Sequence record: MT446390.1
Origin: Escherichia phage TH12
Length of the DNA: 64,000 nt
Direction: 5' to 3' (one strand)
Within the stretch, counting starts at the first letter, position 1. Every line of letters begins with the position of its first letter. The notes under the pieces were generated by a model. That model was not told the origin of the DNA. It saw only the letters and a list, made by a program, of their open reading frames with translations, and made no database searches. Position numbers and translations under genes: made by a program. Below, one piece after another: positions 26,153 to 62,783 of this stretch.

Positions 26153-26488
26153 ATGAACGATATTGATTTCGCCAAAGCATATAAATTTGTAGCAACTCTT
26201 CTCGGTCCTGACGCTCCTACTAAGCTTGAAGTTTTAAATTCTATTCCGACTTCATTGGTTCGAGATGCTGAAATATGGACATGGGACGACTCGGCTGTTT
26301 GTGAAGATCTGTACATTCTGATGAATGACATGATGGTTAAAAAGCCTGAAACAATGGTTACTATTACTGTTGAAGAATATAATCGCCTGCAAGCCATTGA
26401 AGAGCTTCTGTGGAACATTGAATGTGACCTGCCGTCAGGGCTAGAATCCTGGATTGATTATGAAGAGCTCAATAAACTCCGGGGTTAA
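26153..26488 (+). CDS. hypothetical protein (111 aa)
   Basis: ORF. Confidence 0.5.
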   Translation: MNDIDFAKAYKFVATLLGPDAPTKLEVLNSIPTSLVRDAEIWTWDDSAVCEDLYILMNDMMVKKPETMVTITVEEYNRLQAIEELLWNIECDLPSGLESWIDYEELNKLRG

Positions 26489-26616
26489 ACCGTGGTATTC
26501 TGCTCGATGGGAGACTGTCGAGCCAGACGTCGAAACGGTTTACAACGACGAAGAACCATGTTATGATGAACCTTCAATAAATGAATTAATTGATATGGAA
26601 ATGGGAAGAGATTATT

Positions 26617-26787
26617 ATGCAAGTTAAATTATTGTACCGTTTATTAAAAAATGGCAAGCATGATTGGTATTTGCTTATTAAAACCGATCCGAATTTTTTC
26701 TCTGGACAACCATTTACAGTTCGTCCTACTAAACGTCAGCTTCGCAAAGCTAAACGTTCTCATCGTAACTTTTATAGAGAATATTGA
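26617..26787 (+). CDS. small basic-tailed protein (56 aa; C-terminus VRPTKRQLRKAKR)
   Basis: Paralog of 55172-55384. Confidence 0.45.
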   Translation: MQVKLLYRLLKNGKHDWYLLIKTDPNFFSGQPFTVRPTKRQLRKAKRSHRNFYREY

Positions 26788-26788
26788 T

Positions 26789-27202
26789 ATGAATATTTCT
26801 GAAACTCGCGGTAAATGGTTCAAGATTGTTAAAGAAGACGAAGAACTACAAGACAAGTTTCCTGAATTAAAGAAAGGAACAATCATCAAGGTAATTGGTA
26901 CTACTACCGAAGATGGTTATGGCGACCATGGCATTATCGAAGTGATGTTGAACACAGGTGAGAAACTTTGCATCTATGACCGTGATACTTCTCTTTGGTG
27001 CTTCTGGGAATCCCATTCAATAGATGAACTCGAAGAAATTGACCAAGTAGTTTGTGATGGTGGACTTGGTGAATTCGAAGGTGAACGTATTTCTTATGCT
27101 TTAGCTAAATTAGCTGGTCAAGAAAATAATGACGGTTATGAAGGTAATCTGATGCAAGCCGCAGCGGAATACATTGAATATTTAGAAAGACGTTTAAGTT
27201 AA
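26789..27202 (+). CDS. hypothetical acidic protein (137 aa)
   Basis: ATG 2 nt after upstream stop. Confidence 0.5.
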   Translation: MNISETRGKWFKIVKEDEELQDKFPELKKGTIIKVIGTTTEDGYGDHGIIEVMLNTGEKLCIYDRDTSLWCFWESHSIDELEEIDQVVCDGGLGEFEGERISYALAKLAGQENNDGYEGNLMQAAAEYIEYLERRLS

Positions 27203-27237
27203 TAAATACCCTTATCTATTTAAGGTAAGGGTTTATT

Positions 27238-27711
27238 ATGTTATTATCTGGCAAATTATACAAAGAAGAAAAACAAAAATTTTATGATGCACAGAACGGT
27301 AAGTGTCCTATTTGCCACCGTGAATTAGACCCTGATGTTCAAGGTAACCATCTTGACCACGACCACGAGTTAAACGGGCCAAAAGCCGGTAGAGTTCGTG
27401 GATTACTCTGTAATCTGTGCAACGCAGCAGAAGGCCAAATGAAGCATAAGTTCAACCGTTCTGGTCTTAAAGGTCAAAACGTTGATTACCTCGAATGGCT
27501 TGAAGCTCTTCTTGCTTATTTGAAACAAGATTATTCTGATAATAATATCCATCCTAATTTTGTTCCAGACAAAACTAAAGAGTTCTCAAGACTAGGTAAA
27601 GAGGAAATGATGGCTGAGATGCTTCAAAGAGGATTTGAATATACTGAATCTGATACTAAAACACAATTAATAGCTTCATTCAAAAAGCAGCTTAGAAAGA
27701 GTTTAAAATGA
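27238..27711 (+). CDS. 49: endonuclease VII (Holliday-junction resolvase)
   Basis: MLLSGKLYKEEKQKFYDAQNGKCPIC ... near-identical to T4 gp49. Confidence 0.95.
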   Translation: MLLSGKLYKEEKQKFYDAQNGKCPICHRELDPDVQGNHLDHDHELNGPKAGRVRGLLCNLCNAAEGQMKHKFNRSGLKGQNVDYLEWLEALLAYLKQDYSDNNIHPNFVPDKTKEFSRLGKEEMMAEMLQRGFEYTESDTKTQLIASFKKQLRKSLK

Positions 27712-47484: not shown

Positions 47485-48645
47485 ATGAATACTTTTAAAA
47501 TCGGAACGAATTTTGATTTAGCTCTTCTTGATAAAATCGTAGAGCTCAATAAAACCTATCCTAATAGCTTGATAAACGAAGTATATGGCTCTACAAGAGA
47601 AATGGCTTTTGTAGCAGCCAGACCTGATTTTAGGCTTCCTGACGTTGACAAAAAGATGTTAGAAGACTACGTTAAACGTTGTAACGAATTAGGTATTTGC
47701 TTTAACTATACACTCAACACGATAAATCCTGGTTCAAAAAGAGAACTAGTTGAGTGGAAGAAGAAAGCTATTCAGGATTATGTTCAGTATCTTTGGTCAA
47801 TAGGCGTATGGCGTATTACTATCGCTAACCCTGTTGTTATGGAAATTGTTCGTGAAGTCAATAAAGATATTGAGATTGAAGTTTCAACAATTCTACATGT
47901 CGATGCGGTAACTCAAATCAAATACTTACATGACCAATATAACATCAAAAAGGTCTGTTGCGGAATTCATAAGAACCGTTCAGTTTCTTTCCTGAAGCGT
48001 GCAGCAGAGTTTTGCAATAAGAACAATATAATATTTGAAGTTCTTGTAAATGAGTTCTGTTCTAATGCTGGTAAAGGGTATACAACACATTGTAGTTATC
48101 GTGACTCTTGCTATATTTTCCATAGTACTGATGTTACAGCTGATGATGCTAAATCCTTAAATGGATATCCAATGCAACACTGCATTAAAGCTCGTGATAC
48201 AGACCCATTTAACTGGTTGAGAACTCGTTTTGTTCGTCCTCAAGATTTGAAACTTTATAATGATATTGGTATCACTCAATTCAAAGTTTCAGGACGTACA
48301 GGTAGCACAGACTACATTTTGAAAGTTCTTGAAGCATACGCTTCTGAAAAGTTTGAAGGTAATTTGTTAGAACTGTGGAAGCCTTTAGAGACTATTTTCA
48401 CTCTTGAAAATGAGACTGAGTTTTCACATACAGTAAATATTGAAACCTCTTTGTTAGATGGCTTTTTAGAAAAAAGGTGGTTCAGACATCCAGATTTTGA
48501 TTGTGCTAATGAAATCTGTGGGTCAACGTGTACATATTGTGAAAGGTATTATAAACGTCAATTATCTAAAAACGGGTTAGCAGAAAACTCCATATCTATT
48601 ATTGATATAACTAACTCTGATGACGCTTTGAGGTACCCGGAATGA
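47485..48645 (+). CDS. Cys-rich putative Fe-S enzyme (386 aa); weak peptidase-U32-like features
   Basis: YTLNT motif, C-terminal CxxxCxxC; family call is tentative. Confidence 0.35.
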   Translation: MNTFKIGTNFDLALLDKIVELNKTYPNSLINEVYGSTREMAFVAARPDFRLPDVDKKMLEDYVKRCNELGICFNYTLNTINPGSKRELVEWKKKAIQDYVQYLWSIGVWRITIANPVVMEIVREVNKDIEIEVSTILHVDAVTQIKYLHDQYNIKKVCCGIHKNRSVSFLKRAAEFCNKNNIIFEVLVNEFCSNAGKGYTTHCSYRDSCYIFHSTDVTADDAKSLNGYPMQHCIKARDTDPFNWLRTRFVRPQDLKLYNDIGITQFKVSGRTGSTDYILKVLEAYASEKFEGNLLELWKPLETIFTLENETEFSHTVNIETSLLDGFLEKRWFRHPDFDCANEICGSTCTYCERYYKRQLSKNGLAENSISIIDITNSDDALRYPE

Positions 48646-54609: not shown

Positions 54610-54638
54610 GTTTACTTCTCCGGTAGTTGTGTTATTAT
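54610..54638 (+). promoter_or_regulatory. early promoter with inverted repeat CTCCGGTAGTTG/CAACTACTGGAG
   Basis: GTTTAC, 17 nt, TATTAT. Confidence 0.55.
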
Positions 54639-54664: not shown

Positions 54665-54982
54665 ATGAAAACCATCGATTGTAAAGCAGAATTTAAGATT
54701 TTTTATCACGGTTCAAGTAGTTCAGCTAACATCGAAAACATGCTTTGTCCTCCTGAAGAAACAGGAGTTCTGTCTGAAACTGGACGTAAGAAAAACTTGG
54801 ATCGTGTATTCTTTACTGAAGATATCGGTTTAGCAAAGATTTATGCAGGACGAGCAGCACGCTCTTATGGAGGTGAACCACGTCTCTATCGAGTAATTTC
54901 TCCGGTAGACGTAGTTCAAATGAATAATACTAAAGGTGCTACAGTTTATCACGCTGAATGGGCCTTCTGTGAGGAAATATGA
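54665..54982 (+). CDS. hypothetical protein (105 aa)
   Basis: ORF. Confidence 0.5.
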   Translation: MKTIDCKAEFKIFYHGSSSSANIENMLCPPEETGVLSETGRKKNLDRVFFTEDIGLAKIYAGRAARSYGGEPRLYRVISPVDVVQMNNTKGATVYHAEWAFCEEI

Positions 54983-55170
54983 GCAAATTAACTAAAGTTA
55001 CTTTTATCGGTTGGTTTAAAAGCGGCGAGATGTTCACTAAAGATATCATGTTATCAGGTGATCGCGAAGAAATCGAGTGGGTTGCGGTACAACTTGCTGA
55101 AGTGAACAAAGCATTAGTTAAAGCATTTGTTAATGACGAGAAAGTTTTTGAAGCTGATTTCAGAGGATAA
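54979..55170 (+). CDS. hypothetical protein (63 aa)
   Basis: ATGA overlap. Confidence 0.45.
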   Translation: MSKLTKVTFIGWFKSGEMFTKDIMLSGDREEIEWVAVQLAEVNKALVKAFVNDEKVFEADFRG

Positions 55171-55171
55171 T

Positions 55172-55384
55172 ATGTATTCAACTGTGTTTAAACCATCGAC
55201 ATACGAATTTGCATCAACTACACAATGGAAAGCTCTTATTCTGGAAGGATGGGAACTAATGATGGACTGCGAAGCATCTGAAAAGTTTCCACACGGCAAA
55301 GTGGACTTCGTTAAATTTGCTGTACGTCCGACTAAACGACAAATTCGTCAAGAAAAACGCAAATTTCGCAAAAGTTTAAAATAG
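55172..55384 (+). CDS. small basic-tailed protein (70 aa; VRPTKRQIRQEKRK)
   Basis: Paralog of 26617-26787. Confidence 0.45.
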   Translation: MYSTVFKPSTYEFASTTQWKALILEGWELMMDCEASEKFPHGKVDFVKFAVRPTKRQIRQEKRKFRKSLK

Positions 55385-61535: not shown

Positions 61536-62117
61536 ATGACATGTCAATCTGAACTTCAAGAACGCGAATACCTAACAAATCTGATTGATAGCAAATTCAC
61601 CCGCCAAGAACAAAACATTCTCTGGGCTTGCACTGATTCTAAGGAAGACCCAGATTTCCACTATGAATTAGACCATCTTGTCCGTAAGCATATGACTTCT
61701 ACAGTACCAGTAGAACTCTACCGTGGTGTAACTCCAGAAGAAGTAGAACGTCTTTCCCTTCTTTCTGTTGGATGCCATTGGTCTCCTGGACGCGCGACAT
61801 CATTCACAACTGATTTCAGTACAGCTCGTCAATTCTCTGGGAGATGGGAATATCAAACGTACACTATTCTTAGTCTTCGAAATGCTCCATTCATTTTTGA
61901 TTACTACCAAAACATGGTTAACATTATACTCGCTGGAAAGAATCCTAAGCATGTTATGGAAGAAACGCGTGTTGACGTCCTAGATATGATTGAATCTGAA
62001 CAAGAATACATGGTCTCAGGTATCTCTAGATTTGAGATTGTGGAAATTGAAGACTTAGAATATGACCCTTTATCTCGGTTATACAAAATCATTCATTTGA
62101 AAATGTTGAATTTTTAG
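61536..62117 (+). CDS. modB: ADP-ribosyltransferase (ModB-like by position)
   Basis: R-S-E type ART motifs (YRG ... TTDFSTA); tandem paralog of next gene. Confidence 0.55.
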   Translation: MTCQSELQEREYLTNLIDSKFTRQEQNILWACTDSKEDPDFHYELDHLVRKHMTSTVPVELYRGVTPEEVERLSLLSVGCHWSPGRATSFTTDFSTARQFSGRWEYQTYTILSLRNAPFIFDYYQNMVNIILAGKNPKHVMEETRVDVLDMIESEQEYMVSGISRFEIVEIEDLEYDPLSRLYKIIHLKMLNF

Positions 62118-62174: not shown

Positions 62175-62783
62175 ATGTTTATGCCGTATAACGAGTGTGA
62201 AATTGAAGAAATGGTTCGTCGTGCTCAAAACCCCGAATATCAAGATGTATTGCAGTACGAAATTGATAGTCAATTCAGCGACATTGAACAAAGTGTACTG
62301 TGGCAGTGTATGGAAAACAAGCCAGATAGCATCCAACAGGAGTTAAGTTCAATCGTTCGTAGAAATTGGACGTCTTCTGTTCCTGAGACAATGTATCGTG
62401 GAATCTCTAAGAAAACTATGGCCACACTTGATGATAAAGGCATTGGTAGTATTATTAAATTTGACAGAGTAATGAGCTTCAGCCCAGTGTTCGGTGTAGC
62501 ACGTAACTTTGCTTCGTATAATTTTTACGGAACATTTAATATGTTCTGCATCAAAGATGCACCATTTGCTTTCAACTTCCGTGAACATATGCTTAATATG
62601 ATTCTGGCTGCGCCATCTTGCGAGTTCAATGGAGCTTTCCCTGAAGCAACAAGACGGTCTAATGCTAGACTTATATCTGACGAATGCGAATTTATGCTCC
62701 CTATAGGGACTACACTGCGTGTAGATTCTATTATTCAAGATGGACGTTATACAATCTGGAATCTGTCTATTGTCAGTTACTGA
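62175..62783 (+). CDS. modA: ADP-ribosyltransferase (ModA-like by position)
   Basis: YRG ... SFSPVFGVARNF; paralog of 61536. Confidence 0.55.
   Translation: MFMPYNECEIEEMVRRAQNPEYQDVLQYEIDSQFSDIEQSVLWQCMENKPDSIQQELSSIVRRNWTSSVPETMYRGISKKTMATLDDKGIGSIIKFDRVMSFSPVFGVARNFASYNFYGTFNMFCIKDAPFAFNFREHMLNMILAAPSCEFNGAFPEATRRSNARLISDECEFMLPIGTTLRVDSIIQDGRYTIWNLSIVSY

Follow-up and report, generated by a model that had tools for sequence, protein, structure and literature searches.

To our knowledge, TifA, the product of gene 61.4 of phages T4 and RB69, is so far the only phage protein described as disarming an RNase toxin by trapping it on RNA. Its target, ToxN, is a type III toxin whose inhibition by TifA restores plating on toxIN+ hosts; gene 61.4 was renamed tifA in the study reporting this, and the RB69 protein is more potent against ToxN than that of T4 (PMC9391042). 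When isolated alone, TifA co-purifies with RNA, and it binds RNA, ssDNA and dsDNA with little sequence preference, the synthetic protein having KD values of 0.36-2.3 uM for RNAs of 45 to 15 nt (PMC10853763). Together with ToxN it yields a high-molecular-weight ribonucleoprotein enriched in 16S rRNA, and the published model holds that ToxN, trapped on abundant RNA (for example 16S rRNA), is kept from cleaving phage transcripts (PMC10853763). The structure modelled by the same authors comprises a three-stranded sheet, a C-terminal helix and a loop of about 20 residues, the sheet and the loop being the ToxN contacts (PMC10853763). Residue 41, in the loop, modulates the inhibition of ToxN and is predicted to come close to the active site of the toxin. 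The RNA-binding element is the predicted C-terminal basic helix with its Pro53-Thr54 cap, and either set of substitutions, P53A/T54A or K55A/R56A/R59A, abolishes both RNA co-purification and ToxN neutralisation (PMC10853763). TifA homologs from six other phages neutralised no tested ToxN or TenpN, from which the authors infer that members of the family differ in specificity. They also compare TifA with the HIV-1 Vif-RNA-APOBEC3 "molecular glue", in which a viral inhibitor likewise needs RNA to engage a host antiviral enzyme; the analogy concerns mechanism only, Vif and TifA being unrelated in sequence and structure.

The gene adjoining tifA encodes Dmd (T4 gp61.5), which resembles TifA in being a small early protein that neutralises a host RNase toxin, but which belongs to an unrelated family (PF17587) and inhibits RnlA directly (PMC9391042). 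The dmd-tifA operon is known, and its transcription in T4 starts from an early promoter that precedes dmd (PMC9391042). The region holding dmd, tifA and a homolog of RB69ORF040c has been regarded by the TifA authors as a possible anti-TA island. Neither of the two TifA papers (PMC9391042, PMC10853763) mentions paralogs or several copies per genome, and a literature search on DUF7279, the Pfam family of TifA, gave no result.

The DNA analysed here, referred to as the window, is a stretch of 64,000 nucleotides of Escherichia phage TH12 (MT446390.1). Judged by its sequence it is part of an RB69-like (Mosigvirus) T-even genome, reading opposite to the usual T4 map: around pin and gene 49 it shares 99.5% identity with Escherichia phage Mizar and 97% with other RB69-like phages, and around dmd about 98% with RB69 and its relatives. 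A first-pass annotation had pointed out two distant open reading frames encoding small proteins with a common basic tail, and both are present on the + strand. We refer to them as copy A and copy B.

26617..26787, + strand: copy A, a 56-aa short TifA-family (DUF7279) paralog of the subtype called A-type below (open reading frame, PF23945, phrog_3272)
26713..26745, + strand: core motif in copy A, F33-T-V-R-P37-T38-K39-R40-Q-L-R43 (from alignments)
55172..55384, + strand: copy B, tifA (gp61.4), 70 aa, ToxN inhibitory factor A
55316..55348, + strand: core motif in TifA (copy B), F49-A-V-R52-P53-T54-K55-R56-Q-I-R59 (residue count from the sequence)

The two proteins, MQVKLLYRLLKNGKHDWYLLIKTDPNFFSGQPFTVRPTKRQLRKAKRSHRNFYREY (copy A, 56 aa) and MYSTVFKPSTYEFASTTQWKALILEGWELMMDCEASEKFPHGKVDFVKFAVRPTKRQIRQEKRKFRKSLK (copy B, 70 aa), both contain F-[TA]-V-R-P-T-K-R-Q-[LI]-R followed by a Lys/Arg-rich stretch, and copy A, of about 7.0 kDa, has a pI of 10.8 and a net charge of +11.

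The identity of copy B is the simpler matter. Its translation, the same in the window and in the fetched locus L001, is identical to the RB69 orthologue, which is annotated as gp61.4 and lies directly after dmd, and it matches phrog_2375. Copy B is, by sequence identity, TifA, an already characterised protein. It carries H41, which is typical of the potent RB69-type TifA and lies within the loop, and its gene occupies the expected position, the dmd stop codon being 1 nt before the tifA ATG.

54979..55170, + strand: dmd, antitoxin against RnlA/LsoA (PF17587 Dmd, E 3.7e-21; RB69 annotation)

The cluster is headed by a 105-aa open reading frame at 54665-54982 (+), an RB69ORF040c homolog belonging to phrog_2110, which overlaps the dmd start by 4 nt and gave no match in Pfam.

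Copy A is related to this protein beyond chance similarity, as seen from both BLASTP and the matches of the two sequences to PF23945. A direct BLASTP comparison of A and B aligns 19 residues, 12 of them identical (E = 8e-7 as a single comparison), and when all 322 window ORFs with 45 aa or more are compared with each other by BLASTP the pair is recovered at E = 5e-4, being one of just two paralog pairs in the window at E < 1e-3. Both copies score above the PF23945 (DUF7279) gathering threshold of 24.5 bits and cover the 53-position profile almost entirely: copy A with 54.5 bits (E 1.1e-14; residues 7-53 on profile positions 1-53) and copy B with 72.1 bits (E 3.5e-20; residues 18-68 on positions 2-52). 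Copy A falls in phrog_3272 (E 6e-27) and also matches phrog_2375, the group of TifA, and the reverse holds for copy B. NCBIfam contains no matching model. A search of all six frames of the window, with the motif as a regular expression and with the family HMM, revealed no third copy. Copy A and TifA share only about 28-33% identity. Within the common 19-codon stretch the DNA is identical at 38 of 57 positions, and in the 11 codons of the core FxVRPTKRQxR synonymous differences amount to a proportion of 0.67 and non-synonymous ones to 0.08; the shared peptide has thus been kept by selection at the protein level and is not a recent DNA copy.

Wider searches place the pair within a small phage family. 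By word-indexed protein search each copy matched only two near-identical clusters, and an IMG/VR locus scan returned 5 loci. A profile built from A and B and run with HMMER against 1.84 billion cluster representatives gave 8 matches at E <= 1e-3, of which 7 are small phage-type DUF7279 proteins; the eighth, a 1294-aa protein with sulfatase-modifying-factor-like repeats, was rejected as spurious. None of these matches pointed to a bacterial or larger-domain context.

The conserved positions of the family are those that matter in TifA. In an alignment of 11 members W, T, K, R, K, R and R are invariant and P nearly so, the Trp being located on strand 2 (W17 in A, W27 in B). The hallmark of PF23945, a Pro-Thr cap with an adjoining basic cluster (PMC10853763, Fig. 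5C), is found in both copies, as P37-T38-K39-R40-x-x-R43-K-x-K-R in copy A and P53-T54-K55-R56-x-x-R59 in copy B. All five residues of TifA defined by mutagenesis (P53, T54, K55, R56 and R59; 5/5 by residue count on the window sequence) lie within the shared VRPTKRQIR, and in the alignments P37/T38 of copy A are equivalent to the TifA helix cap and K39/R40/R43 to K55/R56/R59. The suggestion, made in the first-pass annotation, that the tail binds nucleic acid was therefore right, since the motif holds the cap and the basic residues whose mutants lose RNA binding (PMC10853763); what had been spotted from the letters alone is the experimentally defined RNA-binding element of TifA.

A different idea put forward along with it was that this basic tail is portable, a peptide for binding nucleic acid or for localisation that is attached to two unrelated small domains. 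Some of the data do have this appearance: BLASTP aligns just the 19-residue tail, and PF23945 gives the isolated tail fragments 32-33 bits, over half of the total score. Yet the profile matches both proteins end to end, the Trp of strand 2 is invariant and the predicted architecture is the same. Moreover, when the N-terminal parts are compared alone with PF23945, that of copy B passes the threshold with 24.8 bits, and that of copy A, at 13.5 bits and E 0.068, aligns in the correct register. Sequence support for N-terminal homology is modest when taken alone, as the N-terminal half of copy A reaches only this E-value, and the homology rests on the full-length profile alignment together with the invariant Trp and the predicted fold. 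As to localisation, no signal peptide or transmembrane segment is visible in either sequence, and both proteins are cytoplasmic early-gene products. We consider a portable peptide on unrelated domains very improbable; the N-termini differ as a result of divergence, of the shorter N-terminus of copy A and of its shortened loop.

We have modelled copy A with AF2 using the 11-sequence alignment (pLDDT 87.1, pTM 0.63). The model has strands at residues 2-9, 15-24 and 27-33 and a helix at 39-55 that begins right after P37-T38, so that the predicted fold of copy A is the three-stranded sheet with a C-terminal helix described in the published TifA model. The confidence depends on the alignment, a run with 5 sequences reaching pLDDT 66 and reproducing the C-terminal helix and two strands out of three. 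A Foldseek search of viral models retrieved, as best matches, small uncharacterised proteins of T4-like phages such as Citrobacter phage Merlin and Salmonella phage S16. Copy A and TifA therefore have in common the profile, the Trp, the Pro-Thr cap, the positions of the K/R/R residues and, according to prediction, the sheet-plus-helix fold.

The differences lie in the remainder of the molecule. Copy A is 14 residues shorter than TifA: its N-terminus is about 10 residues shorter and the stretch from the Trp to the motif is 6 residues shorter. In the model the turn between strands 2 and 3 consists of residues 25-26, a tight turn in place of the TifA loop, and consequently the ToxN-contact loop with residue 41, which copy B possesses, is predicted to be missing from copy A. 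The sheet part is basic and not acidic, its charge being +4 in copy A versus -1 in TifA. A further strict feature of TifA, the location directly downstream of dmd, is shared by copy B and not by copy A: TifA adjoins dmd, whereas copy A adjoins pin.

These differences bear directly on whether copy A could be a redundant or back-up ToxN inhibitor, doing the same job as TifA. Membership of the same family and conservation of the cap and basic residues needed in TifA would be in agreement with such a role, and copy A occurs in Mizar, a phage without TifA at the dmd locus, where it could act as a substitute. However, the tight turn that in the model replaces the residue-41 loop, the shortening between Trp and motif and the low identity to TifA all argue against it, as does the fact that even the full-length TifA homologs of six other phages failed against ToxN. 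We regard redundancy as improbable.

That copy A is a gene in use is evident from its conservation. By tblastn it is present at an identity of at least 80% in some 145 phage records, almost exclusively from RB69-like coliphages and Shigella phages. Seven distinct alleles retain an uninterrupted frame of 56 codons, and diverged pairs (dS 0.5-0.75) have dN/dS values of 0.10-0.18. Copy A is a genuine gene, conserved and subject to purifying selection. The records inspected list it, like its relatives, as "hypothetical protein" or leave it unannotated, the latter for instance in PhAPEC2 and mar005P1. A decaying remnant or a chance open reading frame without function might be suspected from these missing annotations, and also from the RB69 reference (NC_004928, L014 ~48375-48530), where copy A codons 10-12 hold a run of A7 in place of the A6 found in the window and in six other alleles; the resulting frameshift leaves the RB69 A-type gene with just the annotated 38-aa ORF089c. 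This A7 run could be a laboratory-strain mutation, homopolymer slippage or a sequencing error. Against a remnant stand the 7 intact alleles, the low dN/dS, the presence in some 145 genomes and a score well over the family threshold, which make it a most unlikely explanation.

The genes around copy A are tightly packed, in the manner typical of a T-even early or middle gene cluster.

26153..26488, + strand: 111-aa protein, two genes upstream of copy A (phrog_3402, E 1e-31, residues 58-111)
26460..26627, + strand: gp49.1 homolog (Mizar annotation, by BLASTp to T4 gp49.1; phrog_2382)
26789..27202, + strand: pin, encoding PinA, inhibitor of the host Lon protease (PF10465, E 8e-49; annotations)
27238..27711, + strand: gene 49, endonuclease VII (ORF list, annotations)

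Copy A shares its first 11 nt with the end of the gp49.1 homolog, an overlap suggestive of translational coupling, and a single nucleotide separates its stop codon from the pin ATG. The phrog_3402 group, which matches the C-terminal half of the 111-aa protein, is annotated as "antitoxin from a toxin-antitoxin system". This protein also resembles the Pfam T7 gp5.9 RecBCD inhibitor family, below threshold (E 0.0085), and its C-terminal half exists as a stand-alone 56-aa version in PP01_087 (L004 429-599).

We have carried out a scan of fetched loci with the family HMM and observed three DUF7279 subtypes in T-even phages, namely TifA-like long forms, which adjoin dmd or gene 61, the A-type, located between 49.1 and pin, and the C-type, located between pin and gene 49. 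The C-type comprises proteins of 58-61 aa, such as RB69ORF087c, PP01_083, VR20_080 and the IME08 and SF homologs, which are PF23945 members and fill the slot between pin and gene 49 in RB69, SF, PP01, VR20 and IME08. These proteins, together with RB32 ORF078c, are the nearest relatives of copy A, with which they share the short length, the pattern K-x-NG-x-K-x-W, a tail of the form RPTK..R..KR.HR.FY and the PF23945 match. Written out for the two types together, the common tail is RPTK[RK][QM][LI]R..KR.HR.FY and the common N-terminal pattern NG.K.W; the identity between A-type and C-type is 37-43% (tblastn), and in a neighbour-joining tree the two form one clade of short members (56-61 aa) apart from the long forms. 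The C-type differs from copy A in lying downstream and not upstream of pin, in being absent from the window and in being far more widespread, with 356 phage records among Mosigvirus, Tequatrovirus, Dhakavirus and Gaprivervirus. Its absence from the window follows from the gap between pin and gene 49, which measures only 35 nt.

Which subtypes occur together differs between phages. In the window there are TifA and an A-type gene and no C-type; RB69 has TifA, a C-type gene and the frameshifted A-type; and A-type and C-type are found together in some phages, for example 308Ecol101PP and O157 typing phage 3. In T4 neither of the two was found, and since in addition the RB69 reference copy is frameshifted, the copy A gene seems dispensable. 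Mizar, scanned at positions 1-50,000 (the copy search covered these and the window), has an A-type gene and no TifA after dmd. In the equivalent slot (L018, 19918-20058) it carries a 46-aa acidic, Cys-rich protein, MEEVECVVCGCSVYEDEAVFDAYDNATCLDCDRESEEHAYEHEDEE, of phrog_13952, and the slot after dmd is thus polymorphic among RB69-like phages. RB69-type TifA (at least 95% identity) is present in only 68 records versus about 145 for the A-type, and this, together with the pattern in Mizar, indicates that A-type and TifA are inherited independently. We have also considered copy A as a heterodimer or obligate partner of TifA, which is unlikely given that Mizar has copy A without TifA and that the A-type is about twice as common. 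JS98/VR7-like phages (the IMG/VR T4-like contigs L007-L009) have, close to the primase gene 61, a pair of long DUF7279 genes at ~1314-1608 and ~2387-2620, with about 0.8 kb between them; one belongs to the JS98/VR7 TifA type, its companion to the vB_EcoM_005 type. Tested separately, neither of these types neutralised ToxN (PMC10853763). The panel of TifA homologs tested by those authors held neither an A-type nor a C-type protein.

Taking these observations together, copies A and B are best described as DUF7279 paralogs, B being TifA and A a minimal member with, as predicted, the same fold; we assign this reading a probability of roughly 0.85. Copy A would bind RNA as TifA does, through the conserved capped basic helix, and its different sheet face, fully basic and predicted to be devoid of the loop, may contact a protein that is not ToxN, the most plausible candidate being some other defence or toxin protein that targets RNA. 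A different specificity of copy A is supported by the inactivity of the six TifA homologs on ToxN and TenpN, by a distribution of the accessory type and by the neighbourhood, which fits counter-defence because pin encodes a Lon inhibitor and the phrog_3402 "antitoxin" match lies two genes upstream. If so, the pin region could be a second counter-defence cluster. Such a role in counter-defence is proposed by family analogy and from the neighbourhood only, and that copy A has a specific defence target other than ToxN we put forward tentatively, at somewhat less than even odds. Alternatively, the modelled loss of the ToxN-contact loop could be a sign that copy A engages no protein at all.

In the latter case copy A might be a general small RNA-binding protein, for instance an RNA chaperone, an mRNA-protecting or a ribosome-associated protein, with no specific defence target. 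The charge of copy A is in line with this possibility, the whole protein being basic (+11) and its sheet part likewise, unlike that of TifA, and so are the predicted lack of the protein-contact loop and the broad binding of RNA, ssDNA and dsDNA by TifA alone. On the other hand, the presence of the gene is patchy and its position variable, as seen from its absence in T4, the frameshift in RB69 and the alternation of A-type and C-type around pin; as an argument from pattern only, this suits accessory or counter-defence genes better than core RNA metabolism. We consider a general RNA binder rather unlikely, albeit clearly less so than a redundant ToxN inhibitor.

Returning to an RNA binder with a partner other than ToxN, copy A is, as far as sequence and model allow one to say, an uncharacterised member, within a sub-clade, of the known DUF7279/TifA family and not a new kind of system. 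T-even phages carry two or three diverged copies of the TifA fold in varying combinations, and the short clade has, according to the model, lost the ToxN-contact loop while keeping the predicted RNA-binding helix. It is conceivable, and we say so with reserve, that the short DUF7279 proteins flanking pin, both A-type and C-type, are a second, so far unrecognised branch of RNA-dependent anti-toxin factors, whose individual targets would be defence nucleases or toxins other than ToxN. If this were true, the nrdC-49 region, with a short DUF7279 protein, PinA and the protein of the "antitoxin" PHROG, would be a second anti-TA or counter-defence island. The comparison of the short clade with TifA offers a natural experiment on which part of TifA sets the target, and proteins of 56-61 aa are small, synthesisable candidates for new counter-defence specificities. 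A suitable label for copy A and its relatives in annotations would be TifA-like (DUF7279).

Scans of the copy A and tifA regions for transcription signals gave two promoter-like sites, both weak and from a consensus scan.

26539..26567, + strand: promoter-like (G)TTTACA-17-TATGAT and an upstream TG, roughly 50 nt ahead of the copy A ATG
54611..54638, + strand: promoter-like TTTACT-16-TATTAT with TG, before the ORF040c-dmd-tifA cluster

The numbers of promoter and terminator sites in these regions were not above those of shuffled controls, and for this reason the two sites are suggestions only. The 35 nt separating pin from gene 49 contain a hairpin of 10 bp with a T-rich run behind it, at 27208-27232 (+), directly upstream of the gene 49 start; this could be a terminator or a structure masking the ribosome-binding site of gene 49. 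The second paralog pair of the window consists of the adjacent open reading frames 61536-62117 and 62175-62783 (+), 33% identical over 147 aa (E 6e-25), which from their position relative to the Mizar annotation are probably the modA/modB pair of ADP-ribosyltransferases.
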